NCBI GenBank assembly: GCA_963774955.1 | Contig: CAVZGV010000004.1 | Coordinates: 67,522 to 131,521, forward strand | Source: Candidatus Falkowbacteria bacterium | GTDB lineage: Bacteria; Patescibacteriota; Patescibacteriia; CAIXNZ01 | Length of the DNA: 64,000 nt | Direction of reading: 5' to 3' | Shown: piece by piece, positions 26,779 through 64,000 of the stretch | How the letters are laid out: every line of letters starts with the position of its first letter | Numbering within the stretch: the first letter of the stretch is position 1 | Program-made: the position numbers and the translations under genes | Notes under the pieces: generated by a model | The model's input: the letters and a program-made list of their open reading frames with translations, nothing else | Told to the model about the DNA's origin: nothing | Databases searched by the model: none

Positions 26779-26851
26779 CGGAGACAGTTCTTTTCAAAAA
26801 CATTTAACCAAGTCGCCGTCGCTAAAGCTATGGCGACTAAAGGAGAAAAAA

Positions 26852-27859
26852 ATGAGCAGAGACAAAGTAAGAGCCATGTTTTTGGGAGTGGCCATCGGCG
26901 ATGCCCTGGGCATGCCAGTGGAAACAAAAAACTTTTTGGAAATCGAAACTGAGCATGGCCGCGTAACAGATTATCTGGATCCCGGTAACCATAAATGGTT
27001 CAAAGGGTTTCAGCGCGGACAATGGACTGATGATACCCAAGCCACCTTGGCTGTGCTCACATCCCTGATTATTCAAGGCAAAATTGACTTGGCTGATATG
27101 GCTCAGAGACAGATAGACACAATGAACGAATGTTCAAAGGGCTGGGGACGCAGCACCAAAAACTCTCTTCGTGCAGTTGAACGCGGGGTTCACTGGCTGA
27201 AATCAGGTAATCCCCAGGGAGCCGGCAATGGCGTGGCCATGAAAATCGCGCCGCTGGCAGCCTATCTGGCCGCTCCCAATACCGATCATGCCATTGCCGA
27301 AAATGTTGCCGAACTGGCACTGATGACCCATCAGACTGACATGGCGGTACTTTCCGGCTTTGTCCAAATGCACGCTTTGTCATATTGCCTCAATTGCGTC
27401 GACGAAAATCGCCCTTTTTCCGCCGAAGGTCTGTTACAGTATGTTCTGCGCTACGGCAAAGCAGTCAAAGTCATGCTGCGCGAAAAAAAATATCAGCTGA
27501 CCTATCTGCAGGAGGATTTCCTCGGCCGCTTTGCCGCAATGATGTGTCTGTTTGATGAATTCAAGCAGATGACACCGGCCAAATTGGCCGAATGTTACGG
27601 CGGCGCTGACTGCTATGTTTACAATTCGCTGCCATTCACCATTGCCATGTTCCTGCGCAATCCGCATTCCATTGAAACTCTTTACGACACGGTCAATGCC
27701 GGCGGCGACACAGATACCAATGGTTCCATGGTCGCTGCTCTGCTCGGCAGCCTTAACGGCACCAAGATTTTCCCAGCGCATCTGATTGACGGCCTGTGGC
27801 AGAAAGACCGGATTCTCCAGGTCGCCAATGACTTCTGCGACCGTTTCCAAATCAAATAA
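26852..27859 (+). CDS. ADP-ribosylglycohydrolase (ARH/DraG family)
   Basis: AIGDALGMPVE and AGGDTDTNGSMVAALLGS signatures. Confidence 0.8.
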   Translation: MSRDKVRAMFLGVAIGDALGMPVETKNFLEIETEHGRVTDYLDPGNHKWFKGFQRGQWTDDTQATLAVLTSLIIQGKIDLADMAQRQIDTMNECSKGWGRSTKNSLRAVERGVHWLKSGNPQGAGNGVAMKIAPLAAYLAAPNTDHAIAENVAELALMTHQTDMAVLSGFVQMHALSYCLNCVDENRPFSAEGLLQYVLRYGKAVKVMLREKKYQLTYLQEDFLGRFAAMMCLFDEFKQMTPAKLAECYGGADCYVYNSLPFTIAMFLRNPHSIETLYDTVNAGGDTDTNGSMVAALLGSLNGTKIFPAHLIDGLWQKDRILQVANDFCDRFQIK

Positions 27860-27900
27860 ACTCCCGAGGCGTGAATTCCTAAATTCAGGAGTTCACGCCT

Positions 27901-27973
27901 CCTAACTCAAATTATTGTTCCGCCCAAAAATCTAAAATCTAGAACCTAAAATCCAACAATAATTTAAGTTAGG
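27901..27973. repeat. intergenic inverted-repeat module, family A copy 4
   Basis: CCTAACTCAAATTATTGTT ... AACAATAATTTAAGTTAGG (19-bp inverted repeat) flanking AATCTA repeats; terminator 27866-27901. Confidence 0.8.
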
Positions 27974-28022
27974 AGGGAAAGTCCCTTAACAATTTTAAAA
28001 AATACCAATAGGAGGTTTTCAG

Positions 28023-28934
28023 ATGAACAAGCAAATCCTGTACTACTGCCCGCAAATGGCTGACCTGGCGCCAAAAATCAAAACGCTTTGTCCTGATCTT
28101 GTTTTGGGAAACATTTCCTGGGACTTTTTCCCTGATGGTTTTCCCAACATCAAAATCAACGACGTCAAAATGGCCAAAAACGCAGACGTTATCTTTCTGG
28201 CCAGTCTGGACAGCCCGGCTGAAATTTTCAATCAGCTGAGCGTAATCTATGCCCTGCCCCGCTACCTGGTAAAATCGCTCAAAGTGATTTTGCCCTTTTA
28301 CCCGACTGGAACCATGGAAAGAATTGAAACTCAAGGTGAGATTGCCACGGCCATGACCTTGGCACGGATGCTGTCAGCAACGCCAATGACGCAAAGTGGC
28401 CCAACACAAATCATCATCTATGACATCCATGCACTCGGAGAACAGTTTTATTTTTCCGATCAGGTGCTAGTCAGACTGGAAACAGTGGCTGATTCTTTGA
28501 TCGAACTTTTTCCCAAAGATGAATACGATCTGGCTTTCCCTGATGACGGCGCTTACAAACGCTTTGCCCGTTATTTCCCGGGTTATCCCGAGATCATCTG
28601 CCAAAAAGTTCGCGATGGTGATAAGCGCATCATTCAGATCAAAGAAGGAAAGCCTCGGGGCAGAAAAATTGTCATGATTGACGATTTGATCATGTCCGGC
28701 GGAACACTTCTCGAATGCGCCCAAAAATTGCTTGAAGCCGGAGCCCTTGAAGTTCTGGCCTATGCCACCCATCCGGTTTTCCCGGTCAACTCCTGGAAAC
28801 GGTTCATAACCAGCGACATTCTTAAAGTCGTGGTGACTGATTCCTGCCCCAAAACCGTGGCCACAATCAAAGGTCAGCCGAAATTTCAGATAATTTCTCT
28901 GGCCGACAAAATCGCCAACATCATAAACGAGTAG
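28023..28934 (+). CDS. prs: ribose-phosphate pyrophosphokinase (PRPP synthetase) family protein with divergent flexible loop
   Basis: DIHALGEQFYF, PRPP motif VMIDDLIMSGGTL, YATHPVF; the loop region PFYPTGTMERIE differs from canonical PYFGYARQDR. Confidence 0.7.
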   Translation: MNKQILYYCPQMADLAPKIKTLCPDLVLGNISWDFFPDGFPNIKINDVKMAKNADVIFLASLDSPAEIFNQLSVIYALPRYLVKSLKVILPFYPTGTMERIETQGEIATAMTLARMLSATPMTQSGPTQIIIYDIHALGEQFYFSDQVLVRLETVADSLIELFPKDEYDLAFPDDGAYKRFARYFPGYPEIICQKVRDGDKRIIQIKEGKPRGRKIVMIDDLIMSGGTLLECAQKLLEAGALEVLAYATHPVFPVNSWKRFITSDILKVVVTDSCPKTVATIKGQPKFQIISLADKIANIINE

Positions 28935-28947
28935 AAAGGAGTTCAAG

Positions 28948-30915
28948 ATGGGACTGATCAAAATTGGCATGGCTAATATCGACACCACTGTCGGTGCCGT
29001 AGCTTCCAACACTGACAAAATCATCGCCTGTCTCGAAAAGATGTGCGCTGAAAAAGTCACTATTGCCTGTTTCCAGGAACAAGTAATTGGCGGTTATCCT
29101 GCCGAAGACTGGATTCAGTGGCCTGATTTCGTCGCCGCTCAACAGCGCGAACTATACAAAATCATTGCCTTGAGCGGAAAACGGAAATTTCCTGCCGTGA
29201 TCACCCTGGGAGTTACCATGAAGGTTGAAAACAACCTCTATAACTGCCAGGCGGTAATTGCTGATGGCATGTTGATCGGTATTGTGCCCAAGGAAAAACT
29301 GCCGACCTATGGAGTGTTCTACGAAGGTCGAACTTTTTCTCCCGGTATCCCTTATGATTACCGACAAATTGCCACCGGAACATTAGTCAACTTCGGCGAC
29401 ATGATTTTTAAGGCTTCTTTCGGCACTTTTGCCGTGGAAGTCTGTGAGGATATTTGGACACCGGACGGCCCCATGAAACGCCGAGCCTACAGCGGGGCCG
29501 AACTGATCATCAATGCTTCTGCATCCCCTTTCCGCGTCGGCGTGGTTAACACCCGGAAGGAAATGCTGGCCACCAGATCGGCTGACAATCAGGCCACCGT
29601 GGTCTATGTCAACCAGTATGGAGGCAATGATTCCCTGGTCTTTGACGGCGGCGGTTACATTTACCAAAATGGCCGCTGCCTGCTGGAAGCACCCCGCTGG
29701 CAATCGGGCATCTCCTACCAAACTGTGGATCTGAATGTGACTGCCACCTGTCGTCAAACAAACACCACCTGGCGGATGGATCAGCAGGAATTTCTCAAAA
29801 CCAACCAGCCGGTACAAACGATTCCGTGCAATTGTAACCGAGTTCTCAATGAGGACTATGAGTATCCCAAACCCGCGAACCAGAACTTCTTCATGCCGGC
29901 AGTGAAACCGAAAATCGACGAACGCGCCGAATATTTCGAAAATCTGATCGAAGCCATGATTACCGGGCTGGACGGTTACTATGCAAAAACCAATGCTTTC
30001 AAGGGCATTGGCATCGCTCTGTCCGGCGGCAAGGATTCCGTACTAACGCTGATGATTGCCTGGCTTTACCGCCAAAAAATTTATCAGAGAGCAAAAGAAG
30101 CAAACAACTACGCCAAAGTCAGCTTTGCTGATTTTATCCGCTGTTTCTCCATGCCGAGCAAGTTCAATTCGGATACAACCAAGAATATTTCCCGCCTGCT
30201 GTGCGAGGAACTTGAGGTCAGCCTGATTGAACTTTCGATTGAAGATGCATTTGAGCGTGAAGTCGCCGCCACAAAAAAAATGCTGGGACTGCCTCAGACA
30301 GCTGAGCTGAAAAAAATCACCCTGCAAAACATTCAGGCCAGAATCCGCGGCCAGCGCATGCTCAATTGGGCCAATGAAACCAATGGTATGTGGTTGCAAA
30401 CCGGCAACATGTCCGAGAAGGCAGTGGGATACACCACAGTCGGCGGAGACATGATGGGAGCTTACTCCCTGATTTCCAATCTGCCCAAGTCTGTCATCAT
30501 TGAACTGATTGACTATCTGACTGAAAGGTATCAGTTTGAAGGGCTGAAGCTGTTGCAACAGACCAAGCCTTCGGCTGAACTGGCACCTGACCAGGAAGAT
30601 GAAAAGGATTTGATGCCCTTCCCGATTTTAGATGCCTGTATGCATCTCTTTGTCGGGGAAAAGATGAATCCCAGTCAGATGCTGAAAGTCCTCAAAAGCA
30701 TGTGGACTGAAGAGGAACTGAGAGCCATGACTCCGGGTTATGCCCCTGACATTCTCAAGGCATGGGTTAACAAATTCATCACTCTGTTCCATCGCTCCAT
30801 TTTCAAATGGGTTCTCACCCCCGAAGGTGTCCATTTGGGAAAGGAAGATCTGGATCGTGAACGAGCCACGCAACTGCCGGTAGTAACATCTACCGAATGG
30901 TTGCCTAAGCTTTAA
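28948..30915 (+). CDS. nadE: glutamine-dependent NAD+ synthetase (CN-hydrolase plus NAD synthase domains)
   Basis: 655 aa; PP-loop SGGKDS in C-terminal domain; N-terminal nitrilase-like domain. Confidence 0.8.
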   Translation: MGLIKIGMANIDTTVGAVASNTDKIIACLEKMCAEKVTIACFQEQVIGGYPAEDWIQWPDFVAAQQRELYKIIALSGKRKFPAVITLGVTMKVENNLYNCQAVIADGMLIGIVPKEKLPTYGVFYEGRTFSPGIPYDYRQIATGTLVNFGDMIFKASFGTFAVEVCEDIWTPDGPMKRRAYSGAELIINASASPFRVGVVNTRKEMLATRSADNQATVVYVNQYGGNDSLVFDGGGYIYQNGRCLLEAPRWQSGISYQTVDLNVTATCRQTNTTWRMDQQEFLKTNQPVQTIPCNCNRVLNEDYEYPKPANQNFFMPAVKPKIDERAEYFENLIEAMITGLDGYYAKTNAFKGIGIALSGGKDSVLTLMIAWLYRQKIYQRAKEANNYAKVSFADFIRCFSMPSKFNSDTTKNISRLLCEELEVSLIELSIEDAFEREVAATKKMLGLPQTAELKKITLQNIQARIRGQRMLNWANETNGMWLQTGNMSEKAVGYTTVGGDMMGAYSLISNLPKSVIIELIDYLTERYQFEGLKLLQQTKPSAELAPDQEDEKDLMPFPILDACMHLFVGEKMNPSQMLKVLKSMWTEEELRAMTPGYAPDILKAWVNKFITLFHRSIFKWVLTPEGVHLGKEDLDRERATQLPVVTSTEWLPKL

Positions 30916-51464: not shown

Positions 51465-52538
51465 TTATACAACCTTTTCAAATATAATAATTGAACGCCA
51501 GACAAATTGTTTTTCCCTAAAGTATAAAAGATCTTCTTGATTTGTTGGCTGAAAGCCCAACTTTTCAATTTGCGTTAAAATTTCAATTTTACTTTGATGA
51601 TTTCTGAGATTATAAATCGGGAAAACCATAACCACTTTACCGCCCTTGACCAAGACTTTACTGAATTGCACAAAAGCCTCTAAATATAAGGACTCCAGTA
51701 TTTGAACAGTATTTTCAATCTGTTCCCGACTTTCATTGCCTCTGACCGGCGGCCCCAAAAACGGTTCGGTTACAATCGCCTCAATTGAATTAGCCTTAAA
51801 TTTTAAACTCAAATCCTTAACATCCAACTTCATTACTTTAGACTTTTCCGCCGAAGGCGGATCCGCCTCTGGCGGAAGACTTTCTACTTTAGACTTATTT
51901 AAAAGCCAGTCCAAATTTTTCTTTGTATCCTCAATCGCCCTGTCACTGTTATCCGTTCCAATTAAATTTCTATAACCCAAAACAATCGCTTCCTGCAAAA
52001 TCGTGCCTGAACCGCAAAACGGATCCAGAATCACAGCTTCAGGTTTAACCTGCGCCAAATTAATCATCATGCGCGCCAGTTTTGGCGGCAACATGCCGGA
52101 AACCTGATCCCGGCCAGGGCGGCTAAAATCACGACTGCCAAATTCTTCAAAAGCCTGCACAGCCAAGGTCTGGCCCATGGTAACGATTCCCTGATCAATA
52201 AAAAAACAAAGTTCAGCTCCGTTTTTAAGTAATTTATTCTTGGCTACAATAACTGAAGATAATTCCGGTTCTTTGGCCACCACATAACGGGAACTGATAT
52301 TTTTTTCATCGCGTAAAATTGATTTGATTTCCATGGCAATGGCAGTCATCTTTTTTTGAATAGCCTGAATATTCATCTTTGGTGATAGGGGATAGAAGCT
52401 AAAGCCAAAATAAAACTTGGCTTGTTCAAATTTAACCAGCTTAAAGAAATTATCCTGAAATTCATCAAGGTCCCCCATAGTCGCCAAAATCTTGCCGATC
52501 TTAACTGTCCCGCCCAAACGGCTGTTTAGCCAATTCAA
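51465..52538 (-). CDS. class I SAM-dependent RNA methyltransferase (THUMP-type; UPF0020/RlmL/Trm11-like) carrying an in-frame REP insertion
   Basis: DPFCGSGTILQEA motif I and TEPF motif IV; N-terminal part appears split off into ORF 52501..52719. Confidence 0.6.
   Translation of the reverse strand: MNWLNSRLGGTVKIGKILATMGDLDEFQDNFFKLVKFEQAKFYFGFSFYPLSPKMNIQAIQKKMTAIAMEIKSILRDEKNISSRYVVAKEPELSSVIVAKNKLLKNGAELCFFIDQGIVTMGQTLAVQAFEEFGSRDFSRPGRDQVSGMLPPKLARMMINLAQVKPEAVILDPFCGSGTILQEAIVLGYRNLIGTDNSDRAIEDTKKNLDWLLNKSKVESLPPEADPPSAEKSKVMKLDVKDLSLKFKANSIEAIVTEPFLGPPVRGNESREQIENTVQILESLYLEAFVQFSKVLVKGGKVVMVFPIYNLRNHQSKIEILTQIEKLGFQPTNQEDLLYFREKQFVWRSIIIFEKVV
51847..51875. repeat. REP-like hairpin doublet inserted in frame within methyltransferase CDS
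   Basis: TCCGCCGAAGGCGGATCCGCCTCTGGCGGA flanked by imperfect 12-bp direct repeat tactttag(g)actt; encodes ESLPPEADPPSAEKS between duplicated KSKV. Confidence 0.85.
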
Positions 52539-52719
52539 TATCCAGCTCGTTCTCTGTTTCTAAAACCAAAATCCTATCATAAAACTTTATGACTTTATAA
52601 CTTATAGCTTTCGAAGCCAAGACTGCTTCGATTTCGGCTTTGGATAATATGGGGTTTTTTCCAAGAATGAAAAAATATTGCATATTGTTTATTTCTAACT
52701 TCCAAATATCAAGCATCAA
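52501..52719 (-). pseudogene. N-terminal fragment of the methyltransferase gene separated by a frame break
   Basis: ORF overlaps 51465..52538 by 38 nt in a different frame. Confidence 0.4.
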
Positions 52720-52823
52720 ATCTCAAATAAATTACAGTGATCAAATTACAAATTACAAACATTTGTTATTTATTATTTGAAATTTGAGATTTATTTGCAA
52801 TTTGGACTTTGTTATTTGTTCTT

Positions 52824-53636
52824 TTATAGTGGGCTCTTAATGTTTTTTAAAGCTAAATTGGTCAGATGAGTATAAATTTGCGTTGTTCTGATATTAGCAT
52901 GGCCAAGCAGTTCCTGTACATAGCGAACATCCACGCCGTTTTCCAGCAGGTGAGTGGCAAAGCTATGGCGCAGGGAATGAAAAGTGGCATCATTTTTTAT
53001 CCCAACTTTTTCTTTTGCTCGTTCAAAAATAATCTGCGCTGTTCGTTCAGTCAGATGGCCACCGCGTTCGCTGGTGATTAAATAATCATCGGCTTGTTTC
53101 CCGGCCATGAACTGTGTTATCTGATCTTTCAATTTATCAGGAATAATGGTAATTCTATCTTTTTGGCCCTTGGCCTGGCGGATATTTAATTGCAAGCCAG
53201 GCAAATCAATATCTTTTATTTTCAATCTGATAATCTCTGAAACCCGCAAACCGGCGCCGTAAGTTAAGGCAATCATCAGGCGATGTTTAGGATTGGCTAT
53301 TGATTCAATAATTTTGGCGATATCTTCCCTTGAAAGTATAACCGGCAAACGCTTGGGTTTTTTGGAATATTTGAGATTCAGTTTAAAAGGGACTTTGACG
53401 ATATTTTCGTAAAAAAATTTAATGGCATTGAGGTAAACATTTATGGTCTGCCCGGCCAAACCCGCGTCTTTTTTCTTGATTAAATATTCCTTAACCTTAA
53501 ATTCATCATATTTATCATAATTTTCGCCAAGATAGGCAAAATAATCCTTCAGGCACCCCAAATAACTATCAACCGTCTGCGGACTGTAATTTCTGTACTT
53601 TAATTCAATTTTTACCTTATCCAAATATTCTTGCAT
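52824..53636 (-). CDS. tyrosine site-specific recombinase (XerC/XerD / phage integrase family)
   Basis: box I ..GLRVSE.., box II HSLRHSFATHLLENGVDVRYVQELLGHANIRTTQIYTHL. Confidence 0.8.
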   Translation of the reverse strand: MQEYLDKVKIELKYRNYSPQTVDSYLGCLKDYFAYLGENYDKYDEFKVKEYLIKKKDAGLAGQTINVYLNAIKFFYENIVKVPFKLNLKYSKKPKRLPVILSREDIAKIIESIANPKHRLMIALTYGAGLRVSEIIRLKIKDIDLPGLQLNIRQAKGQKDRITIIPDKLKDQITQFMAGKQADDYLITSERGGHLTERTAQIIFERAKEKVGIKNDATFHSLRHSFATHLLENGVDVRYVQELLGHANIRTTQIYTHLTNLALKNIKSPL

Positions 53637-53829
53637 TAAGGGGTTTTTTATAATAAGATTAAAGTAATTAAATTATATCATACAACTCGTTTCTGTCGCC
53701 AAATCGCGCATCAAAAACGAAATGTATGCGCATAGAAACGAGTTATATGAAATATGCTTTTCTTTTTTCGGCTATAACCCGAATCGGGTAAAAATCTTTC
53801 AATTTAATTCCTTCGACTATTTCTAATTT

Positions 53830-54555
53830 ATGTTAGAAAATTTTGAATCAAAAGCTCCTGATTATCAGGTAGAACATCTTCCAGACTCCGATATTGTATT
53901 AAATATGAACTATGGTGGGTTCGATGACCAGGCGCATCTATTAGAAACACTTAGGGGATCGGGTAGTATTGATGACAAAATTGATCAGTTTAAAAAAAAG
54001 CGTGAGGAAGACAGCAAGCTACAGTATTTTATTAAACAGAAAAAATATACAGCCAAAGCAATATCTGAAGGTATCGCCAAGCGACAAGGATTTGAAAGCG
54101 CCGCAGAGATTGGTTTACGTAGTGTGCTTAATGAAATACTTTTATCGAAGAGAATAAAAGAAATTATTGCAACGGACGAGGCTCAGGAGATTGTCAGAAA
54201 GCACGGTTTTGGGGGGCTTCGCTTTGTCATGCCAATTGCCGGTGTTATCGCAAGGGATGGCAGAAAATTCTTAGTTTACAAGAACATTAAGTCTAAAGAA
54301 GTTTATGAATTCGAATCAGAGGGTTCATTCGATCTTAATTACGGGTTACCAACTGAAGTTAGGGATGATATTGAAAGCAAACTAAGGAACTTATACTCCA
54401 TAGCTGCAGAATTAGACAAAGTGTTTTTTGATAACGGGATCCATGCCAACGATATTAGAGATAATCAATTTATGTTGACCAAACAAGGTGACAAGTACCT
54501 TTTAAATTTGATCGATGTAGAGGCTTATCGAAAACGAACTCGGTCGGTCGAATAA
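53830..54555 (+). CDS. hypothetical protein
   Basis: ORF track 241 aa. Confidence 0.4.
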   Translation: MLENFESKAPDYQVEHLPDSDIVLNMNYGGFDDQAHLLETLRGSGSIDDKIDQFKKKREEDSKLQYFIKQKKYTAKAISEGIAKRQGFESAAEIGLRSVLNEILLSKRIKEIIATDEAQEIVRKHGFGGLRFVMPIAGVIARDGRKFLVYKNIKSKEVYEFESEGSFDLNYGLPTEVRDDIESKLRNLYSIAAELDKVFFDNGIHANDIRDNQFMLTKQGDKYLLNLIDVEAYRKRTRSVE

Positions 54556-54705
54556 TTAATTATTCATGAGAAATGTTGGATTCCAGATCGCTAAGAGAAG
54601 TAAATTTGAAAGATTTTTTACCCGCATCCCGTTGCGGCGGGAAAAAAGAAAAGAATACATCGCTTGTGATATAATTTATTTACCAAATATTTAACCAATA
54701 TAACG

Positions 54706-56136
54706 ATGAAATCACCAGAACAAGGGCTTAACCCGGAAGGTAAATCTATTGAGGTAGAGAAAACGGAAGTGCTCCGTAATGAGTATAAAAACCTAATGGG
54801 TGACTACCAAAGACTATACAGGGAAATAATAAAACTTGAACGGAAACATCCACTAGAACGTCGAGATGAGGCTGTTCAGTGGGAGATATTGGAAATTGAT
54901 AAGGAGCGCAATCAAATACATCAAAAACTTAATAGAATTGCTGAGCAAGTAGGCAGGACAAAAGAAGATGTTATCGTTGACATGGTCAGGTGGCAAAAAA
55001 GTTTAAAAGAATTTGGATTGCCAGAATTTTCGGTCTTGGATAGTGGTGATATGATAGAATCATTTGGGTCAACGTATTTTAACATTGCACTCCAACTTGA
55101 TCGGCCACAGTTCCATGAAAAAAGGGAAACTGTGTTGGGCGAGCCATTTTTGAAAGGATCTGAAGATGAAGAAAAACACTCTAAACCAGTAATCGCTGAT
55201 GATGAGTTATTGATTGTCTTTTCAATAAATACTATATTACCAAAATTTGGATATCCTAGAGGATATGGCATGCTGGAAGAAAAAAAACCGTTCGATTATG
55301 ACGAAAGAATAGCTAGGGCAAAGAATTTGGCTAAAAAAACGAATGGAAAATTTTTTATTAATACACAAGGCAGTCATCACGAATCAGATGCAAACGTCAT
55401 GGGAGTTGTTATCCCTAAAAAAAACTTAGAAAAAGTGGCTGGGGTCATTCGCAATGATCCAGAAAAGTTTAGGTTAGGAGAACAGTTTTATACAGACTCA
55501 ACGCTACAAGAATTAAGAACGAAGAAAAAGGAAGAGGATATACAACGAGAGAAAGAACTTCAGGAAGATGAAAAGCTATGGAGAAAAGACTTTAATAAGG
55601 AGTATCCACACTTTGCGGAACAATGTAATGAAATCGAGAGTAGTTTCGGTTCTCTATCTCTGTGGGTAGACAACCTACGAGCAATTACTGATAATCCCAG
55701 CACAAAAAGTGTATTACAAAATTACGAGGAATTGCGCAAAAAATATAGAAATCTAAAAACAGCTATAGATGAATACCGATCGGGTCGAAAATCTTGGTAT
55801 AATCTTGCCTTGGACGAAGGAAATCCACCCGCAAATTATTTTAGTGCAAACATCCGTGAGATGGAGTGGATGCTCGCAGAATTATCCAAAGATAAAGAGA
55901 TAGAATTGCTACAAGAAAAAGCAAAACGTCTTAAAGATTGGCGAACTAAGGCTGAGTTTAAAAACTTGGCAAGTAAGTTCTCTGTAAAGAAAGGCGACAT
56001 CATGACAGCTTTAAATAAGCTACAAAAATCGCATCCTGAATGGACTGACAACCGATTAGAACCAAATGGTGATATAGTCAATGTCTATTCACCTGAATTT
56101 TTTGACGCATTAATCAAACAATTGGAAACCAAATGA
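54706..56136 (+). CDS. hypothetical coiled-coil protein (Lys/Glu-rich)
   Basis: ORF track 476 aa. Confidence 0.4.
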   Translation: MKSPEQGLNPEGKSIEVEKTEVLRNEYKNLMGDYQRLYREIIKLERKHPLERRDEAVQWEILEIDKERNQIHQKLNRIAEQVGRTKEDVIVDMVRWQKSLKEFGLPEFSVLDSGDMIESFGSTYFNIALQLDRPQFHEKRETVLGEPFLKGSEDEEKHSKPVIADDELLIVFSINTILPKFGYPRGYGMLEEKKPFDYDERIARAKNLAKKTNGKFFINTQGSHHESDANVMGVVIPKKNLEKVAGVIRNDPEKFRLGEQFYTDSTLQELRTKKKEEDIQREKELQEDEKLWRKDFNKEYPHFAEQCNEIESSFGSLSLWVDNLRAITDNPSTKSVLQNYEELRKKYRNLKTAIDEYRSGRKSWYNLALDEGNPPANYFSANIREMEWMLAELSKDKEIELLQEKAKRLKDWRTKAEFKNLASKFSVKKGDIMTALNKLQKSHPEWTDNRLEPNGDIVNVYSPEFFDALIKQLETK

Positions 56137-56542
56137 TTGAAGTGAATTTGTTTTCTGCTAAAGAGAAATAAGGAGTTGGCGGGCCGCAATTCACCCCCTT
56201 TACTTCCCCCTCTTGCGCCCCCACCCAACATTAAAAAAAATAAATTGACCTTGCGGAAAAATTATTTTCTTTCAGAGAATAAAAAGAAAAGCATACATCA
56301 TCTAACACAGTATATCTGGCTACGCTTTTAAATAATTAACCAATTAAAAACAGAAAAGTAAACGCAACGCTCCGCCCATATTGTTCGTCTTAAGATAATC
56401 AAGATATACTATAAAATAACTAATTCAAAACGAACAACATCAGATATACTGAAACGTTAGACGAAATAAATTATTCTTATTTTTAATTTTTGTTAATCGA
56501 TTTGACTTCATCTTCTTAATCTTATATAATCTTATATAGCTA

Positions 56543-57619
56543 ATGTATAAGATTATTTTTATGGCTAAAAATAGACTAAGCACAAGAATAGAAAACATCC
56601 CATCTGAAATTTGGTTAAAAATTAACCAAATTGAGACATTAAATGGACAATGGATTTCGGGGGCGAAATTAGATCCCCAAGTATTAGGTCGACTCAAACG
56701 ATCTGTTTTGATTACCTCAACCGGCGCTTCCACCCGCATCGAAGGCGCAATGTTGTCTGACGAAGATATTGAAAAGATGATGCGAGGACTTTCTGTTCAA
56801 AAATTTACGGATCGAGATGTGCAGGAAGTAAAAGGCTATTATGAGCTTTTGAATAATGTATTTGATTCATGGAAACATACCAAATTCAATGAAAGCACAA
56901 TCAAGCATTTTCACAAAGAACTCTTAAAATATACTGAAAAAGACGAAAAACATCGTGGTGAATACAAAAAACAGGAAAACAAAGTCCACATGATCAACGA
57001 AGCAGGTGAATCTGTTGGCGTGCTTTTTGACACCACGCCCGCTTATCTCACCCCGAAAGAAATGCAGGAGCTAACGGAATGGACGAACGATGCATTGGAA
57101 AATAAAAAATATCATCCGCTACTGACGATCGGCAATTTTTTAGTTGAATTTTTGAATATCCACCCATTTGTTGATGGCAATGGCAGAATTTCACGTGTTC
57201 TTACGAATTTATTGTTGCTCAAAAACGGTTATGAATACATGCCGTATGTTTCGCATGAGAAATTGGTAGAGGATAACAAACCGGAATATTACATTGCGCT
57301 TCGCCGAAGTCAAAAAACGGTTAAAAAAGAAAACGAAAATATTACACCTTGGCTAAATTTCTTTTTAGATATCCTTCTGGAACAGTCAAAACGAGCGGTG
57401 GAATTGCTGTCAAAAGAGAATATTGAGAAACTCCTTTCGCCCAAACAACTGGCTGTTTGGCAGTTTTTAAATACTGTAAATGAAGCCTCTCCAGCAGAAA
57501 TTTCCAAAACAACAAAAGTCGCAAGGCCAACTATCAATCAGGCGGTTGATAAATTATTACGGCTGAAAAAAATTGAACGCATTGGATTAGGAAGAGCCAC
57601 AAGATATAGAAAGATATGA
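56543..57619 (+). CDS. fic: Fic/DOC family protein with C-terminal wHTH
   Basis: Fic motif HPFVDGNGRISR. Confidence 0.85.
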   Translation: MYKIIFMAKNRLSTRIENIPSEIWLKINQIETLNGQWISGAKLDPQVLGRLKRSVLITSTGASTRIEGAMLSDEDIEKMMRGLSVQKFTDRDVQEVKGYYELLNNVFDSWKHTKFNESTIKHFHKELLKYTEKDEKHRGEYKKQENKVHMINEAGESVGVLFDTTPAYLTPKEMQELTEWTNDALENKKYHPLLTIGNFLVEFLNIHPFVDGNGRISRVLTNLLLLKNGYEYMPYVSHEKLVEDNKPEYYIALRRSQKTVKKENENITPWLNFFLDILLEQSKRAVELLSKENIEKLLSPKQLAVWQFLNTVNEASPAEISKTTKVARPTINQAVDKLLRLKKIERIGLGRATRYRKI

Positions 57620-57891
57620 ACAAACCGACTTGGCAGGGTCGCAATTCATTGCTTTTATTCCCCTCTTGCGCCACCGCCAAATGGAATCAAAATTCGCCTT
57701 TAAATAATCGAAGAAAAATTGAAAAATGAAAATAATTTAAATCCGATAACAGCGTGTATGCAGTTCGGGCTTTCCCCGAAAGCCTTCTCCCATATTGCTA
57801 AAGCAACATCGCATACACGCGAACGTTAAGTGAAATATTTGGGCTGCTAAATTAAAACAACCGATTTCTTTTTTTAAAGAGTAAACAAAGT

Positions 57892-58716
57892 ATGCAAAGT
57901 AAAAATGATAATACATTATTCAAGGGAGCAGCTTGGTATTACGCAAATTTTAGACGTGGATATCCAGAATCTTTTTATAATCACTTAATAAAAGTTTTCA
58001 AACTTGATAAATCGTCAAGGGCACTAGATTTAGGAACTGGCACAGGTCAAATCGCAATTCCTTTATCAAAGATAGTCAAAGAAGTCGTCGCTGTTGATCC
58101 TGACGAGGAAATGCTAAACGAGGGTAATACTATCGCTAAATTAAAAGGAGTTTCAAATATTATTTGGACAAAATCACGAGCCGAGGATATATCAAATAAA
58201 TTAGGTCATTTTGATATAACGACAATGGGAGCTTCCTTTCATTGGATGGAACAAGATAAGGTACTGGAAAAAATTTACGACCTTACAAATGACCACGGAG
58301 GGGTTGTTCTAGTTTCAAATACCTCATCAATTCATAGGAATAAGGGTAATGATGCATGGAAAGAGGTTGTTTTAGCGACAATTGAAAAGTATCTTGGAAA
58401 GCAACGTAAAGCTGGTAAAGGATATTTTAAGGAACCAAATGATAGATTTGAAGATATTCTAGAGCGCTCAAAGTTTAAGGTGCTAAAAACTTTTAATGAT
58501 AGATACACTCAAGAATGGAATATTGACACTATCATTGGATTTTTATACTCGACCTCCTTTGCATCCAAACGATTCTTTGGTGACAATATTGAGAATTTTG
58601 AAAATGAATTACGTTCAAATTTGTTAAAGTTAAATAAAACCGGTAAATTTACTGAAACAGCAGTTCTAGAAGCATTACTCGGACAAAAAAACAAAAGAAA
58701 TTTGAAAATTTTTTAA
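57892..58716 (+). CDS. class I SAM-dependent methyltransferase
   Basis: motif I LDLGTGTGQIAIPLS. Confidence 0.65.
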   Translation: MQSKNDNTLFKGAAWYYANFRRGYPESFYNHLIKVFKLDKSSRALDLGTGTGQIAIPLSKIVKEVVAVDPDEEMLNEGNTIAKLKGVSNIIWTKSRAEDISNKLGHFDITTMGASFHWMEQDKVLEKIYDLTNDHGGVVLVSNTSSIHRNKGNDAWKEVVLATIEKYLGKQRKAGKGYFKEPNDRFEDILERSKFKVLKTFNDRYTQEWNIDTIIGFLYSTSFASKRFFGDNIENFENELRSNLLKLNKTGKFTETAVLEALLGQKNKRNLKIF

Positions 58717-58876
58717 AACAATCCGCCTTTGGCGGAAAAAGAAAAGGAATACATCAGCTAATACGGCGTATCTGGCTACGGCTTTTTTCAAAAACCTTCG
58801 CCCAAATAGCTGTGCAACTACAGATATGCCGAAACGTTCAGTAAAAACTAAAGGAGTTGTTCACGAGCGACTCCTC

Positions 58877-58922
58877 TTGACAGAAATAGTCAAATTGCTA
58901 TAATTGTAATACAATGTATTAC
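58877..58922 (+). promoter_or_regulatory. sigma70-like promoter plus palindromic operator for the toxin-antitoxin operon
   Basis: TTGACA (58877-58882), 16-nt spacer, TATAAT (58899-58904); palindrome GTAATACAATGTATTAC 58906-58922. Confidence 0.6.
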
Positions 58923-58937
58923 AATTAATTTATCTCT

Positions 58938-59153
58938 ATGAGACAAGTAATTAACATCTCTTTGCCTCAACAAACAGTCCAGGAAGTTAAATCTGCCGTT
59001 AAAAGAGGCAATTATCTTAGCGTTAGTGAATTTTTTCGTGATCTATTAAGAGACTGGCAGTCTGGTAATCTTCTTAAAGAATTAAACCAAAGCAGAGAAG
59101 AAATCAAAGCCGGCAAGGGCAAAACTTTAAAATCCTTAAAGGATTTGAGTTGA
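58938..59153 (+). CDS. type II antitoxin (ParD/RHH-like)
   Basis: 71 aa, immediately upstream of RelE/ParE toxin. Confidence 0.55.
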   Translation: MRQVINISLPQQTVQEVKSAVKRGNYLSVSEFFRDLLRDWQSGNLLKELNQSREEIKAGKGKTLKSLKDLS

Positions 59154-59159
59154 TCTTTT

Positions 59160-59417
59160 ATGGACATAGTTTATTCCTCAAAATTTGCCCGTGAATACAG
59201 GAAATTGCCTAAGAATGTTAAGATAAAGGCAGAAGAGCACGAAACAATATTCAGACAAAATCCTCATGATCCGAAATTAAACACGCACAAACTTCATGGC
59301 AGACTTATAGAATTCTGGTCTTTTTCAATCGGTAATAAATACCGGATTATTTTTGAATTTGGCAACGACAATATAATCTACTTTCATTCAGTAGGTAATC
59401 ATAATATTTACCAATAA
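59160..59417 (+). CDS. RelE/ParE-family type II toxin
   Basis: 85 aa; SKFAREYRKLPKNVK...KLHG...WSFSIGNKYRIIF pattern typical of RelE/ParE. Confidence 0.65.
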   Translation: MDIVYSSKFAREYRKLPKNVKIKAEEHETIFRQNPHDPKLNTHKLHGRLIEFWSFSIGNKYRIIFEFGNDNIIYFHSVGNHNIYQ

Positions 59418-59662
59418 ACAAACTTCGCATACGCCGAAACGTTAGCTGACATTTTGGGCAGTGAGCGCAATTCAAATCAATTTATTTTTATGGAGATAAT
59501 TACCGCAAATAATTAATTCATTTGGCTACGCCCAAATTTTATCTTTTTTGGGCTATCTGCATACCCCATTGCGTTATTCTAACAAACGTGATATTATTAG
59601 AATAAGATGGTTAATTATTCTAACCGTTAGAACAACAAACCCCCTTATTCTAATCAGTAAAT

Positions 59663-60763
59663 ATGCCAATAAAACCCTATATTTTGCCTAAATTACCAGT
59701 AAAAATTGATTACGACCAACTTATCGGGAAGATTATCAAAGCGCACAGGGCTATTGCTAGCCTTGATTCTTTGCTTGGCGCCCTGCCCAACCCTGCCTTG
59801 CTTGGCAGAACCATGCAAACCAAAGAAGCGGTTGAGAGTTCCAAAATAGAAGGCACCCAGGCTACTATCAATGAGGTCCTGGAATATGAAGCAGTAGGAG
59901 TAAAAAAAGAGGCTACAATAAACCAAAAAGATATTAATGAGGTAATAAATTACCGTCAAGCTTTGGATTTGGGAGTAAAGAGCCTGGAAACATTGCCACT
60001 TTCTGAAAATCTAATCAAAAAACTACATGCTACTTTGCTCAAATCAGGCCGTGGAGCCAATAAAGCTCCCGGTGAATTTAGGAAAGTTCAAGTTTATATC
60101 GGCAAGCCTGGAGCTAGCATTGCTGATGCATCGTATGTCCCACCTGCTGCCAATGAAATAATTCCTTTGTTTAGCAACCTGGAAAAATATTTAAATTCCA
60201 ATGAAGAAAAAGATAAATTGGTGCAAATAGCCATCGCTCATTATCAGTTTGAAGCGATTCATCCATTTCTTGACGGAAACGGTCGAGTGGGCAGATTAGT
60301 AATCTCGCTATTTTTATATGAAAAAAAATTATTATCTCATCCTTTTTTATATTTGAGTGAATTTTTCGAAGAACATCGCCAATATTATTATGAATTATTA
60401 CGTGGCGTAAGCGAAAAACAAGACTGGATAAGTTGGATCCAATTTTTTCTCGAAGCTTTGGCTACCCAAGCCCAAAAAGCCGAATTAACAGGTAAAGAAA
60501 TTCTTAAACTTCATGCCGGCTATAAAGAAAAAATTACAGAAATTAAATCAATTTACGCTATCAACTTATTAGATGCCATTTTTGTTCGCCCAATTTTTAC
60601 CACTGCCAGCTTGCGGAAATACGTTAAAATGAAAAACACCCAGACATTCTTCAGCCTGATTGCCAAATTTGTTGATGTAGGAATTCTGAAAGAAGCCAAT
60701 CCCGAAAAAAAACGCAATAAAATTTACGTTTTTCCTGAATTGATAAAATTGTTAAACAAGTAA
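59663..60763 (+). CDS. fic: Fic/DOC family protein (paralog of 56543 gene)
   Basis: Fic motif HPFLDGNGRVGR. Confidence 0.85.
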   Translation: MPIKPYILPKLPVKIDYDQLIGKIIKAHRAIASLDSLLGALPNPALLGRTMQTKEAVESSKIEGTQATINEVLEYEAVGVKKEATINQKDINEVINYRQALDLGVKSLETLPLSENLIKKLHATLLKSGRGANKAPGEFRKVQVYIGKPGASIADASYVPPAANEIIPLFSNLEKYLNSNEEKDKLVQIAIAHYQFEAIHPFLDGNGRVGRLVISLFLYEKKLLSHPFLYLSEFFEEHRQYYYELLRGVSEKQDWISWIQFFLEALATQAQKAELTGKEILKLHAGYKEKITEIKSIYAINLLDAIFVRPIFTTASLRKYVKMKNTQTFFSLIAKFVDVGILKEANPEKKRNKIYVFPELIKLLNK

Positions 60764-60848
60764 CGTGGCTCTTAAGACAGTCACGGGGTTTATTAGCCGA
60801 AGTATTATCCTTTATCTCGGGAGGTGAAGAACTTTTTAAAACTATACA

Positions 60849-61409
60849 ATGAAAATTAATAAAATATTTTTCTTAACCGGCGTCAATGGGGTAGGCAAAT
60901 CCACCATAATTCTTCATTTGAAGTCTATTCTGCCTGAGAATAAATTTGTGATTTATGATTTTGACGCGCGAGGCGTTCCGGCAAATGCTGACCGCGCGTG
61001 GAGAATTTCCGAAACTAAGCATTGGCTTAGTCAAGGCAATCTGAATTCAAAAAATGGAAAAAGCACGATCATTTGCGGCTTTATTAAACCAAGCGATCTT
61101 GGGACTTACAATTTAATTAATCGTGAATCATCCGAAATCATGCTAATTCTGTTATCTGCCAAACCGGAAATAATCCGCCAACGGCTAATAACCAGATACA
61201 CCGTAAACGGAGTTTTTGACGAATCGCAAATGGTAATAGGCAAAACAATTGACGAATTCATTGAAGGCAATGTTTGGTTCTCAGAACAAATAAAGAAAGA
61301 ATTCGCGAACAATAACTTGCCGATAATTGATACTTCCGATTTAACACCACCGGAGGTAGCGCAAGAATCTGCGAAAATTATTATAGAAAAATCTGCTAAA
61401 AAAAATTAA
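60849..61409 (+). CDS. P-loop NTPase (small-molecule kinase-like)
   Basis: Walker A LTGVNGVGKSTI. Confidence 0.5.
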   Translation: MKINKIFFLTGVNGVGKSTIILHLKSILPENKFVIYDFDARGVPANADRAWRISETKHWLSQGNLNSKNGKSTIICGFIKPSDLGTYNLINRESSEIMLILLSAKPEIIRQRLITRYTVNGVFDESQMVIGKTIDEFIEGNVWFSEQIKKEFANNNLPIIDTSDLTPPEVAQESAKIIIEKSAKKN

Positions 61410-61466
61410 TTTTTCAATGAAACCTAAATATTTTCAATTCAACTGCCGGGAAACAAAAAACTTGAT

Positions 61467-61931
61467 TTGCGTCAGGCTAATGCAGTTTTAAAATATAAAC
61501 CTGACATAATAATTTTAGAATATCCCAATAACAATAAAACTCCAAATATGGAGTTAAATAACTATGCCGCGCTGAAAAAGCCTCAAAAACTGGTGGAAGA
61601 TAGACTGAAAAAATTACCTAGTAGCATTCTTAAAATTCATCCCTGGGCCAAAGCAGATACTGTAATGTGGCAAAATATAGTAAACTTATGGGGAAAAGGG
61701 CATCAAGTTTTAATCTACAAAGTTGACGCGCCCAGTGAACTGACCAAAGAATTGCTATTCAAATGGCCAGCACCTTATCCGAAAATAATGAGAGACTGGC
61801 GCTGGTGGGTGCAAATCTATTTGCGCGAAAGAATAATGACCGATAATATTAAATGGATATTTAAAAATTACAAAGTTAAAAAAAACCGACTACGCTCATC
61901 TTTTTACAAAGTTTTCACTGGAATCATATAA
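61467..61931 (+). CDS. hypothetical protein; possible N-terminal frame break at A6 run (61455-61460)
   Basis: TTG start in ORF track; overlapping ATG ORF 61417-61490 in another frame. Confidence 0.35.
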   Translation: MRQANAVLKYKPDIIILEYPNNNKTPNMELNNYAALKKPQKLVEDRLKKLPSSILKIHPWAKADTVMWQNIVNLWGKGHQVLIYKVDAPSELTKELLFKWPAPYPKIMRDWRWWVQIYLRERIMTDNIKWIFKNYKVKKNRLRSSFYKVFTGII

Positions 61932-62095
61932 AATTTTTGCTTAAAAATCCGAGCAAGGCCCAAATCTGGAAGTATTATTTTGGAAAATTTCCAGAAGTCA
62001 ACCGATCCAATATAGCTTTAAAAATAAGAAATTTTAACAAGGTCTTTTATAAATACTGGAGAAAATACTCCGATTTTAATTCTTAATATGAAAAA

Positions 62096-62566
62096 ATGAA
62101 AAAAACATTTTTAATTTTCAGCGCCTGTTTTGTTTTGATTTTATCAGGCTGTCAAAATATTTCCGTTAACAGCCTTGAAAACAACAAAAACACCAATAAT
62201 GAACCGGCTGCAGGCCTGGCTAATCCGGCTTCTGCCAATTGTATTGCCAAAGGAGGCAAATTGGAAATGAGAAAAAACAAACTGGGAGAATACGGAGTCT
62301 GCTTATTTGAAGACAATCGCCAGTGTGAAGAATGGGCGCTTTTCCGCGGTCAATGTCCTGAAGGCGGAGTAAAAATTACCGACAATGCAAATGCTGCGGA
62401 AGTTTATTGCGTTATCACCGGCGGACAGGTTGTCAGTTTGGAAAAAGATACCCTTTTATGTAAGAGAATTGACGGTACATTATGCACTATCCAGGCAAAT
62501 TTTGACGGCGAATGCCCTGACCCCAATGATCCAAATCCAAACGCAGGTAATGTGGAAGCTCAATAA
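62096..62566 (+). CDS. DUF333-type lipoprotein (putative hemolysin family)
   Basis: lipobox LSGC; two repeats of NPAS.NC..GG...G.C....C.EWA-like motif. Confidence 0.6.
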   Translation: MKKTFLIFSACFVLILSGCQNISVNSLENNKNTNNEPAAGLANPASANCIAKGGKLEMRKNKLGEYGVCLFEDNRQCEEWALFRGQCPEGGVKITDNANAAEVYCVITGGQVVSLEKDTLLCKRIDGTLCTIQANFDGECPDPNDPNPNAGNVEAQ

Positions 62567-62590
62567 AAAGGCCTAATTACCTTAATTTTT

Positions 62591-63835
62591 ATGGAGATAA
62601 TTAACGTAAATAATTTAAGCAAAAAATATTTTGACTATTTAGAGCTGGAACATATTGATGTTGTCAGTCAGATTTTAAGTGAAGTTAAAAAAGACGGGGA
62701 TAAGGCTATTCAAAAATATACCAAAAAATTTGATAATTTGGCTTTAAAAGACTTTAAACTTTCCAAAGAACAAATTAAAAATGCCTACAAGCAAGTTAAT
62801 CCGAGGGATATCCAAATGCTTAAAAAGGCTGCCGCCAACATTAAATCTTTTGCCAGAAAACAGCTGGAAACTTTTAAGAATTTTGAAATTACCAAAAACG
62901 GGGTCACCTTGGGACAAACCATCGTGCCTATAGAAAAAGTAGGGTGTTATGTTCCTGGAGGAAGATATCCATTACCATCCTCTGCTTTAATGACTGTTAT
63001 TCCCGCCAAAGTAGCGGAGGTAAAGGAAATAATTGTCTGTTCACCGAAAATACACCCTTTAACGATTGTGGCTGCTGATCTGGCTGGTGCCCACAAAATC
63101 TTTAACATCGGCGGGGTTCAGGCTATTGGCGCTCTGGCTTATGGAACAAAATCAGTGCCCACAGTCAATAAAATTGTAGGGCCTGGAAATAAATATATTG
63201 CTGCAGCAAAAAAACAAGTCTACGGAATTGTTGGCATAGATTTTATTGCTGGGCCGAGCGAAGTTCTCATAATCGCTGATGAATCGGGGAATCCCGCCTT
63301 TATCGCCGCTGATTTATTGGCGCAAGCTGAGCACGATCCTCAGGCCAGATGTGATTTATTGACCACATCAAAAAAAATCGCTCAAGAAGTAAATCAAGAA
63401 ATAGAAATTCAACTTGCTAAGTTATCAACCAAAGAAACTGCCAAAATTGCCTTGAAGAATGGTAAAATTGTTATCATTAAAACCTTGGCTCAGGCCGTTG
63501 AAATTTCCAATAAACGAGCGCCGGAGCATTTAGAATTACAAATTAAAAACCCCAAAGCTCTGATGCCTAAACTGATTAATTATGGCTCGTTATTTATTGG
63601 AAATTATTCTGCCGAAGTCTTTGGAGACTATTGCAGCGGCACTAATCACACCTTACCGACAAATGGCGCTTCTCATTATACTGGCGGATTATCTGTCAAA
63701 GAATATATTAAAATTTTAACCTACCAAAAAATGAACAGAAAAAGTTGTATTAATTTAGGGAAAATTGCTTCCAGGCTAGCAGATCTTGAGGGACTAAAAG
63801 CTCATAAAAATGCTGCAGATATCAGATTAAAATAA
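62591..63835 (+). CDS. hisD: histidinol dehydrogenase
   Basis: [35 protein letters not shown] and APEHLELQ motifs. Confidence 0.8.
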
Positions 63836-63841
63836 TAATTT

Positions 63842-64000
63842 ATGGATTTTATAAACTTTCCGTCTCAATATAAAAACGCCGTCTTAAATCAAACAAAAAA
63901 TACTACTATACGCGTAAAAAATGAAATAGGGAAGTACAAGACAGGGCATACATATGTAGCGCAATCTTATGCCGGCACTGATTGGGGCCAAAAAATTAAA
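63842..64000 (+). CDS. partial ORF at window end
   Basis: ATG 63842, open to end of window. Confidence 0.3.
   Translation, partial: MDFINFPSQYKNAVLNQTKNTTIRVKNEIGKYKTGHTYVAQSYAGTDWGQKIK

Follow-up and report, generated by a model that had tools for sequence, protein, structure and literature searches.

The 64,000-nt stretch of Candidatus Falkowbacteria DNA analysed here (the window) contains a minus-strand gene for a tyrosine recombinase and, divergent from it, a series of small cassettes that end in imperfect palindromes. We conclude that this is probably a chromosomal integron-like gene-capture platform with a recombinase other than IntI and with non-canonical hairpin sites, and not a canonical integron. 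The same anatomy is conserved across the Patescibacteria, the arrays lie on one side of the recombinase gene in one orientation, and their cargo turns over from genome to genome. The crossover falls at, or within a few bases of, the G|TT of the recombination sites. A first-pass annotation of the window had proposed an integron-like array beside the divergent recombinase, and this proposal was supported by the folding of the sites, by the orientation of all 108 site matches in related loci, and by the rule followed by the composite R′ boxes.

Anatomy of the array in the window

The recombinase gene (52824–53636) encodes 270 aa with the Pfam Phage_integrase and SAM_4 domains, and 11 plus-strand open reading frames (ORFs) follow it in the window. 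In order, these correspond to two unknowns, a Fic protein with a winged helix-turn-helix domain (wHTH), an S-adenosylmethionine (SAM)-dependent methyltransferase, an RHH protein, a RelE/YafQ protein, a Fic_N/Fic protein, a P-loop protein, a further unknown, a 156-aa ORF, and hisD. The ORF map and domain searches confirmed this gene content, including the cargo named in the first-pass annotation. ORF241 and ORF476, the first two genes, had no family match in the domain searches, and a product identical to that of the 156-aa ORF on another contig carries PF03891 (DUF333).

The array itself proved shorter than the row of at least 11 genes originally assigned to it. When scanned with a covariance model (R1, built from an alignment of 51 sites), the window yielded three full sites, one half site, and the core site beside the recombinase gene (site 0), and nothing else. 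The array content is instead four cassettes with six genes (53.7–59.4 kb), bounded by three complete hairpin sites of ~100–175 nt and the half site. It had been described as grading into hisD; it ends at 59441, and no site was detected at 59.5–64 kb by the full model scan with filters off. Similarly, the shared elements attributed to spacers of 150–400 bp are indeed present in the first five spacers (53.6–59.5 kb; 150–406 nt), but the later ones, beyond 59.5 kb, measure 24–164 nt and hold no sites. The features are as follows.

53725–53753, plus strand: primary (attI-like) core site, site 0; core consensus, hairpin fold, model match
53743–56456, plus strand: cassette 1; ORF241 (53830–54555) and ORF476 (54706–56136)
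56294–56468, plus strand: attC-like site 1; R″ 56300–56306, L″ 56308–56318, L′ 56441–56451, spacer AAAC, R′ 56456–56462
56457–57825, plus strand: cassette 2; promoter-like site 56502–56530, Fic/wHTH gene 56543–57619, C-rich-loop hairpin 57630–57680
57738–57837, plus strand: attC-like site 2; R″ 57744–57750, L″ 57752–57761, L′ 57811–57820, spacer GAAC, R′ 57825–57831
57826–58836, plus strand: cassette 3; SAM-dependent methyltransferase 57892–58716 (Pfam Methyltransf_25/11), between sites 2 and 3
58750–58848, plus strand: attC-like site 3; R″ 58756–58762 (AGCTAAT), L″ 58764–58774, L′ 58821–58831, spacer AAAC, R′ 58836–58842
58837–59441, plus strand: cassette 4; promoter 58877–58904, RHH antitoxin 58938–59153, RelE-YafQ toxin 59160–59417
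59427–59436 (L′), then AAAC and G59441|TT, plus strand: right half-site of cassette 4; right half only, spanning 59420–59453
59442–62590, plus strand: block outside the demonstrable array; Fic_N/Fic, P-loop NTPase, ORF154, 156-aa ORF

Consensus promoters precede the Fic gene (11/12) and the toxin-antitoxin pair (12/12), indicating that at least two cassettes have their own promoters. Cassette 1 holds two genes and, at 54640–54661, the decayed remnant of a site's 5′ flank, and is probably a fusion. Its first 26 nt are complementary to 56281–56306 (88%, repeat search), and its R″ (ATCTAAC) agrees with the R′ of site 0 at 7 of 8 positions when the two are read side by side.

Repeated elements and hairpin sites

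Three repeat families are present, all confined to 53.7–59.5 kb within the window. The right-end motif CAACNTCRSATAYRCNSRAACGTT occurs at 56435, 57804, 58815, and 59420 (four seen versus 0.02 expected) and is absent from the rest of the 64 kb. Direct copies of AAAAGAAAAGNATACATC start at 54644, 56282, and 58738, with an inverted copy at 53749, and CGCAATTCA...CCCCTCTTGCGCC was found at 56185 and 57640 (0 copies expected). The families reported in the first-pass annotation were therefore real and beyond chance, but some individual words were not: the 10-mer GAAACGTTAG was not significant alone, the 59519 copy (GGCTACGCC) was weak, and the 12-mer TATCTGGCTACG was unconvincing by itself.

On reading the sequence, the CAACNTCRSATAYRCNSRAACGTT and AAAAGAAAAGNATACATC families are the two halves of a single imperfect palindrome with the order TACATC, R″ (NNNNAAC), A, L″ (11 nt), then L′ (11 nt), (A/G)AAC, R′ (GTTNNNN), and GAAATA. 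Imperfect inverted repeats of the form R″–L″/L′–R′ with AAC and GTT triplets thus stand at the cassette end, as in integrons. The L boxes vary among the three copies, and each pair is self-complementary (CAGTATATCTG/CAGATATACTG, GCGTGTATGC/GCATACACGC, and CGGCGTATCTG/CAGATATGCCG). The suggested GTTRRRY attC core fits two of the four R′ boxes in the window (GTTAGAC and GTTAAGT) but not the other two, and the sites are not canonical attC.

As single-stranded DNA, the window sites fold into imperfect hairpins, with fold z-scores down to −4.25. Site 1, a training member of model R1, scored 75.8 bits and its bottom strand folds at −18.9 kcal/mol (z = −4.25); site 2 scored 78.6 bits (z = −4.05 and −3.75), and site 3, which also folds as a hairpin, scored 66.4 bits. 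The half-site of cassette 4 matched with its right half alone (17.9 bits), and by sequence reading its L′ and R′ pair with the L″ and R″ of site 3. Within 58756–59441, the RHH/RelE pair accordingly sits between the L″ of site 3 and a second L′–R′ half that pairs with that L″. In the related locus L088 (470–1040), the halves of one hairpin site lie ~480 nt apart, with a HicA-like ORF between them.

The third family, GGCGGG..CGCAATTCA..TTGCGCC, was considered as a cassette boundary and rejected: the element taken in the first-pass annotation for a shared spacer or boundary sequence is a separate hairpin inside cassettes. This C-rich-loop hairpin (56176–56228 and 57630–57680) lies downstream of ORF476 and Fic and has a 14–16-bp stem (TTGGCGGGCCGCAA...TTGCGCCCCCACCCAA) and a 17–19-nt loop, with no T run after it. 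It accompanies Fic homologues in L087 (1195–1255), L088 (3578–3640), and L091 (6912–6960), with compensatory changes in the stem.

The core site beside the recombinase gene

Site 0 consists of a left arm (53725–53735), a 7-nt centre (53736–53742), and a right arm (53743–53753), with the crossover position at G53742|T53743. It lies within a larger hairpin (53674–53754; z = −4.4; weak model match, 23.3 bits) directly upstream of the recombinase start, which ends ...ATAGAAACGAG|TTATATGAAAT. In ~47 of the ~50 related loci with a called site, the consensus ANTTCGNATAR-WAACGAG-TTRKNYGAAAT was found directly upstream of the recombinase gene. The core therefore has 11-nt inverted-repeat arms around a 7-nt centre, with the cassette junction where the centre meets the right arm; it is this arm that varies between genomes and is exchanged at every insertion.

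The L′ box of the palindromes starts with the left-arm word of the core (TCGCATA or TCAGATA), and R′ is a right arm. Because of these two identities, the folded palindrome mimics the core site, with a 1×4 internal loop in the position of the centre. On the minus strand at 53672–53699, a promoter-like site for the recombinase gene (GCGACA-16-TGnTATAAT) overlaps the left arm of the core-site hairpin, and binding there could therefore regulate the gene.

Conserved platform and variable cargo in related loci

We compared 83 related Patescibacteria loci (1.03 Mb). In the three closest (L001, L004, and L006), the gene downstream of the recombinase is conserved and the divergent side is wholly different: L001 carries an Rce1-like gene and a methyltransferase followed by rpsF, L004 an unknown and a DpnII restriction-modification system, and L006 unknowns. 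All three have the same core site at the recombinase and a palindrome of the same type after the first gene, whose left repeat is the exact complement of the bases after the core G|TT (8 of 8 in L004 and 9 of 9 in L006). The comparison of cassette content among relatives proposed in the first-pass annotation thus returned a conserved recombinase and core site with wholly different cargo. Many contigs stop 100–300 nt upstream of the recombinase gene, and the short-read assemblies of the window strain break there too.

A loose hairpin scan (any spacer, at most one mismatch) gave 22–32 matches per strand in the window, nearly all of them false. The scan became informative once it was limited to the geometry with spacers of a = 1 and b = 4 and compared between sides and strands: this rule-based search returned 58 matches on the array side and strand versus 2, 7, and 10 in the other three strand and side classes, and other spacer combinations were flat. 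The alignment of 51 sites shows two variable inner hairpins flanking a near-invariant CCCAWATT. With the covariance model, 108 matches were obtained at E ≤ 1e-3 in the 83 loci, of which ~60 were new, lying outside the training set. All 108 lie on the upstream side of the recombinase gene and face away from it, a side and orientation that make up 15.7% of the search space. Of the 49 loci in which 1 kb or more is available upstream, 41 have a site, with up to 10 sites in 9 kb on a Peregrinibacteria contig. As in integrons, the array adjoins and diverges from the recombinase gene, the cassettes are co-oriented, and a primary site stands beside the gene.

Folding of the boundary repeats, likewise proposed as a check, was confirmed: they form imperfect hairpins, and covariation is strong. 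Pairing in the 11-bp L stem reaches 99%, and 10 of the 11 pairs have changed on both sides. The two L-stem pairs outside the scan selection are 96% paired, versus 20–45% in slid controls. The stem contains no bulged base, and the spacers are 1 nt versus 4 nt. Agreement with GTTRRRY is limited to 27 of 99 sites and with RYYYAAC to 34 of 109, and the sites consequently depart from the canonical attC geometry.

Two further recurrent structures were noted in these loci. A non-coding element (...CTTTTCTTTTTTGGGCTATCGCCCAATTG...AAAATTT..., and ~60 nt further on GAGGGG.ATA.GGTGTTTTCTCCGC...) occupies the first or second cassette position in L001 (~4100–3950, minus strand) and L004 (~3450–3330) and also occurs just after G|TT in L025, L029, L042, L054, L062, L066, and L081, which belong to distant classes of the candidate phyla radiation (CPR). 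The window holds only its first ~30 nt (53743–53775). It could represent a non-coding cassette common to these arrays, a promoter module, or a small RNA. Gene-less mini cassettes of 150–250 nt follow the core site directly in L020 (7717–8826), L008, L015, L028, L036, L058, and L075; in these, the bases after G|TT pair with the R″ extension ~15–40 nt away, so that the unit barely exceeds the hairpin site.

Cassette junctions and folding strand

A circular cassette opened at G|TT predicts that the R″ of each cassette matches the R′ of the preceding one, and this was observed. The reverse complement of R″(n) equalled R′(n−1) at all four variable positions in 29 of 59 junctions and at three of four in 18 more, compared with 6% for random pairs and 9% for the site's own R′ (P = 6e-20). 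Among the first cassettes, 18 of 37 matched site 0. Crossover at G|TT with a composite R′ is again the behaviour of integrons.

These junctions bear on the possibility that ordinary integrative islands accreted in tandem through classical double-strand recombination at an att site beside the integrase gene. A tyrosine recombinase does adjoin variable accessory genes here, and the 34-nt hisD-start duplicate described below brackets 59515–62581 as direct repeats. Classical double-strand integration is nevertheless disfavoured because its inserts end up flanked by one and the same core: identical core repeats would be expected, whereas R″ matches its own R′ in 9% of cases (6% by chance) and the preceding R′ in 49%. 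In addition, the L boxes differ between sites while remaining self-complementary, and the units have a median of 730 bp and lack an integrase. We therefore regard island accretion as very unlikely. This median holds for the cassettes across the loci; in 88 of 98 of them, the longest ORF has the orientation of the array.

Of 109 sites, 92 have a more stable fold in the bottom strand than in the top strand (P = 5e-15), whereas length-matched controls taken from cassette bodies favour the top strand. This asymmetry also concerns the idea that the hairpins are not recombination sites at all but repeats resembling repetitive extragenic palindromes or miniature inverted-repeat transposable elements (REP/MITE), terminators, or a small-RNA family in a hypervariable region. 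The hairpins are intergenic, structured, and placed after stop codons, and an RNA function is conceivable for the CCCAWATT loop motif and for the other hairpin family (56176 and 57630). However, an Rfam scan at gathering thresholds returned tRNAs only and no family for the hairpin sites, all 108 matches fall on one side and strand beside one gene, the better-folding strand is the non-transcribed one, and the relation between R″(n) and R′(n−1) has no RNA or terminator explanation. Such an origin seems to us scarcely credible.

The recombinase and its affiliation

The protein matches PF00589 (E = 1e-42) and PF13495, and its catalytic residues R131, K156, H220, R223, H246, and Y255 are invariant among 24 homologues. 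Its best curated family is NF040815 (recomb_XerA_Arch), whose cut-off it passes (235.1 bits vs 220); against the integron-integrase family TIGR02249, it is matched in two pieces (E = 4e-66) and falls below the cut-off (223.6 bits vs 265). The best match in the PDB is VchIntIA (2a3v, E = 1e-44), and a Foldseek search with the predicted structure ranked VchIntIA first and XerA next. The alignment with VchIntIA is split (query 4–175 with IntI 5–179, and query 191–270 with IntI 238–317), which leaves 15 residues (176–190) facing 58 in IntI (180–237). In the AlphaFold model (predicted local distance difference test, pLDDT, 85), only short strands lie between helices H167–177 and H197–211, with no inserted helix. 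Integron integrases are defined by an insertion within the fold of the catalytic domain (PMC9668308; also stated in passages of PMC8138268), and we read the 15-versus-58-residue gap as the absence of this IntI-specific insertion (I2 helix region). Judged by alignment and structural model, the recombinase is not an IntI and lacks the additional domain. The first-pass annotation had rightly noted that it is shorter than IntI, and the additional domain for which it recommended a check is missing from the VchIntIA alignment, the TIGR02249 match, and the AlphaFold model alike.

A true IntI acting on attI and attC would account for VchIntIA being the best match in both sequence and structure, for the E value against TIGR02249, and for the AAC/GTT triplets, the G|TT crossover, and the array layout. 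The missing insertion and the score below the TIGR02249 cut-off nonetheless speak against a canonical integron, as do the 1×4 spacer, the lack of extrahelical bases in the L stem, and the 27 of 99 sites with GTTRRRY; we consider it highly improbable. IntegronFinder defines the integrase by the IntI additional domain, and it would therefore not call this recombinase an IntI.

Homologues occur on at least 594 Patescibacteria genome contigs (47–96% identity). The protein homologues listed are very numerous, 223–291 aa long, and 58–96% identical, and carry the names of Uhr-, Falkow-, Buchanan-, Berkel-, and Vogelbacteria. The scan that gave at least 594 matches used one genome per species, and the 80 loci kept from it mostly have Patescibacteria names, from Saccharibacteria, Peregrinibacteria, Gracilibacteria, Dojkabacteria, WWE3, Microgenomates, and Parcubacteria groups.

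This distribution raises the question of a housekeeping function, in which the recombinase is the chromosome-dimer resolvase of the CPR, the core site is its dif, and the cassettes are hitch-hikers similar to integrative mobile elements exploiting Xer (IMEX). XerA as the best curated family with its cut-off passed, a 270-aa protein at 47–96% identity in all CPR classes sampled, and the dif-type symmetrical 11-7-11 core architecture all agree with this, and difSL likewise adjoins xerS; inverted 11-nt arms, a short centre, and (for difSL) a site beside the gene are the likenesses to XerA–dif and XerS–difSL. Xer enzymes are also able to use folded hairpins, as in CTXphi, where two inverted dif-like sites form a single-stranded hairpin that is integrated through one strand exchange. 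The short Xer-related ‘Cand’ simple tyrosine recombinases of candidate phyla resemble the present enzyme, and passages of Smyshlyaev et al. (2021; PMC8138268) list ‘Cand’ among the simple-recombinase subgroups that may compensate for Xer function; the recombinase probably belongs to this subgroup.

However, the sign of the GC skew does not change across the site in 18 of the 21 loci whose two flanks both reach 6 kb or more, and the site beside the gene is therefore not a terminus dif. In the window itself the skew is ambiguous, with a cumulative minimum near 54 kb but only 10 kb beyond it. The position off the skew switch in the related loci, together with a right arm that is replaced at every insertion and differs between genomes, separates the system from both Xer/dif and CTXphi. 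Nor are ordered arrays with as many as 10 or more gene cassettes in one orientation a trait of IMEX, and the arrays here hold promoter-bearing and promoterless gene cassettes, as opposed to the phages of the CTXphi type. Xer/dif with hitch-hikers is unlikely in our judgement, although it overlaps with the gene-capture platform that we prefer, in that one enzyme could have both jobs.

Layout and proposed mechanism

The recombinase is transcribed divergently from the core site (...WAACGAG|TT...), at which cassettes have accumulated. Each cassette runs from the TT of a GTT triplet through the cargo to its own imperfect palindrome of ~100–175 nt. On the gene-capture reading, this palindrome would enter recombination in folded, single-stranded form, with the bottom strand as the most likely substrate. 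In the fold, the right arm of the core would have its mimic in the R stem and the left arm in the first bases of the L stem (TCGCATA or TCAGATA), with the 1×4 loop in the centre. A single strand exchange at G|TT would then be followed by replicative resolution, similar to integron attC × attI and CTXphi attP(+) × dif. The recombinase would act without the IntI I2 domain, which would be in keeping with an L stem free of extrahelical bases. A broader version, which we hold tentatively and would not yet call probable, is that a housekeeping-type, I2-less Xer recombines bottom-strand hairpins into a core site beside its own gene as an ancient gene-capture system of the Patescibacteria as a whole.

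Fic cargo in other genomes

The Fic protein of cassette 2 has homologues that are 84–93% identical in genomes labelled Magasanik-, Kuenen-, and Peregrinibacteria, compared with ~50–60% identity for the recombinases of the same groups. The DNA unit held in common begins at the promoter, takes in Fic and the C-rich-loop hairpin, and ends in the R″/L″ of the cassette's own site; its neighbours differ in all four genomes examined. This distribution supports horizontal movement, although not cleanly. ORF476 was unrelated to the 472-aa Fic neighbour in L091.

Evidence that weighs against gene capture

Several observations count against the reading as a gene-capture platform. The Fic unit loses homology at its 5′ end 43 nt inside the cassette and not at G|TT, and in three of the four other genomes it has no full flanking site, the sites being truncated or absent. 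Essentially no cassettes were shared between arrays among the 106 compared, and no identical cassette was found in two arrays. The junction rule is perfect in only 49% of junctions and fails at two junctions in the window, where the fourth site is a half site only. Of the 108 model matches, 48 trained the model, 9 of the 11 L-stem pairs were chosen by the scan itself, and all loci were retrieved through the recombinase, which places arrays elsewhere in the genomes outside the scope. The recombinase is, moreover, commoner and more conserved than integron integrases usually are, and 7 of the 49 loci have a core site with no detectable hairpin site; this wide spread and these site-less loci suggest another, possibly primary, role for the enzyme. 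Finally, we infer excision, integration, and single-strand dependence from sequence.

Other features of the window

In other assemblies of this strain, the block at 59442–62590 and hisD lie on one uninterrupted stretch. A 34-nt direct duplicate of the hisD start, including the ATG (59481–59514 and 62582–62615; 91% identical, 0 expected), brackets a 3.1-kb hairpin-free stretch (59515–62581). The arrangement suggests either that another mechanism inserted this stretch separately into the 5′ end of hisD or that it is left over from a former junction between array and hisD. Downstream of the recombinase, a methyltransferase gene (51465–52719, minus strand) consists of two overlapping ORFs of 357 and 72 aa; its best match is TIGR01177, and its counterpart in L001 (Pfam UPF0020) is one 393-aa gene. 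The split could reflect a frameshift, a sequencing error, or a pseudogene. Between this gene and the 3′ end of the recombinase gene lies an AT-rich inverted repeat of 57 nt with a 2-nt loop (52703–52818; 72% complementary). GC content is 0.43–0.54 at 12000–30000, compared with 0.33–0.41 in most other parts of the window, and this region is possibly foreign DNA or a gene cluster of different composition.

Comparison with known systems and significance

The closest parallels are the sedentary chromosomal integrons, such as the V. cholerae superintegron, whose VchIntIA is the closest solved relative of the recombinase. They share with the present system a divergent recombinase gene with an adjoining primary site and a co-oriented array, an imperfect palindrome at the 3′ end of each cassette with AAC...GTT triplets, a G|TT crossover with a composite R′, a toxin-antitoxin cassette, and a better-folding bottom strand. 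Integron cassettes are mostly short single-gene units with cargo of unknown function, to which the median of 730 bp found here may be likened. In contrast to the chromosomal integrons, the recombinase described here is without the I2 insertion and does not reach the TIGR02249 cut-off. Its sites are longer, with a median model match of 132 nt, and have an 11-bp L stem without extrahelical bases, a 1×4 internal loop in place of the symmetrical unpaired spacer, a CCCAWATT loop motif, the flanks TACATC and GAAATA, and an R′ of the form GTTRKRY. Some cassettes have their own consensus promoters, and the hosts are Patescibacteria, among which the recombinase is nearly ubiquitous.

The pdif modules of Acinetobacter plasmids are also small accessory modules, including toxin-antitoxin pairs, between Xer-type sites. 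They use double-stranded XerC/D sites in alternating inverted orientation, are plasmid-borne, and do not lie beside a recombinase gene, whereas the sites here are all direct (108 of 108 in one orientation), hairpin-structured, and chromosomal. Archaeal integrons (Ghaly et al., 2022; PMC9668308) are comparable as integron-type arrays outside the classical bacterial hosts that were found in metagenome-assembled genomes. Archaeal IntIs retain the IntI-specific additional domain, and their attCs share the single-stranded folding structure of the bacterial ones (PMC9668308), whereas neither the domain nor the canonical attC geometry is present here. According to PMC9668308 (which cites Messier and Roy, 2001) and PMC8138268, integron-mediated recombination requires the additional domain. 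The passages of PMC8138268 retrieved by term searches contain nothing on cassettes or hairpin sites. In the full-text literature searched, which does not cover all journals and in which an earlier description is thus possible, we found no integrons, attC, or cassette arrays linked with the CPR or Patescibacteria.

If a cassette platform of this kind is lineage-wide, it would be a main route of accessory-gene flux in the reduced genomes of the CPR, and it would account for the recurrent assembly breaks beside the recombinase gene. The same cassette logic without the additional domain or extrahelical bases would offer an experimental handle on the transition from Xer-type to structure-specific recombinases (compare Escudero et al., 2016; PMC4792948). 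Should the system prove to be an ancient one of the Patescibacteria, it would be either a surviving intermediate stage that links Xer/dif with integrons or a case in which the integron principle arose independently, and the I2 domain and the extrahelical bases would be dispensable for structure-specific cassette recombination.

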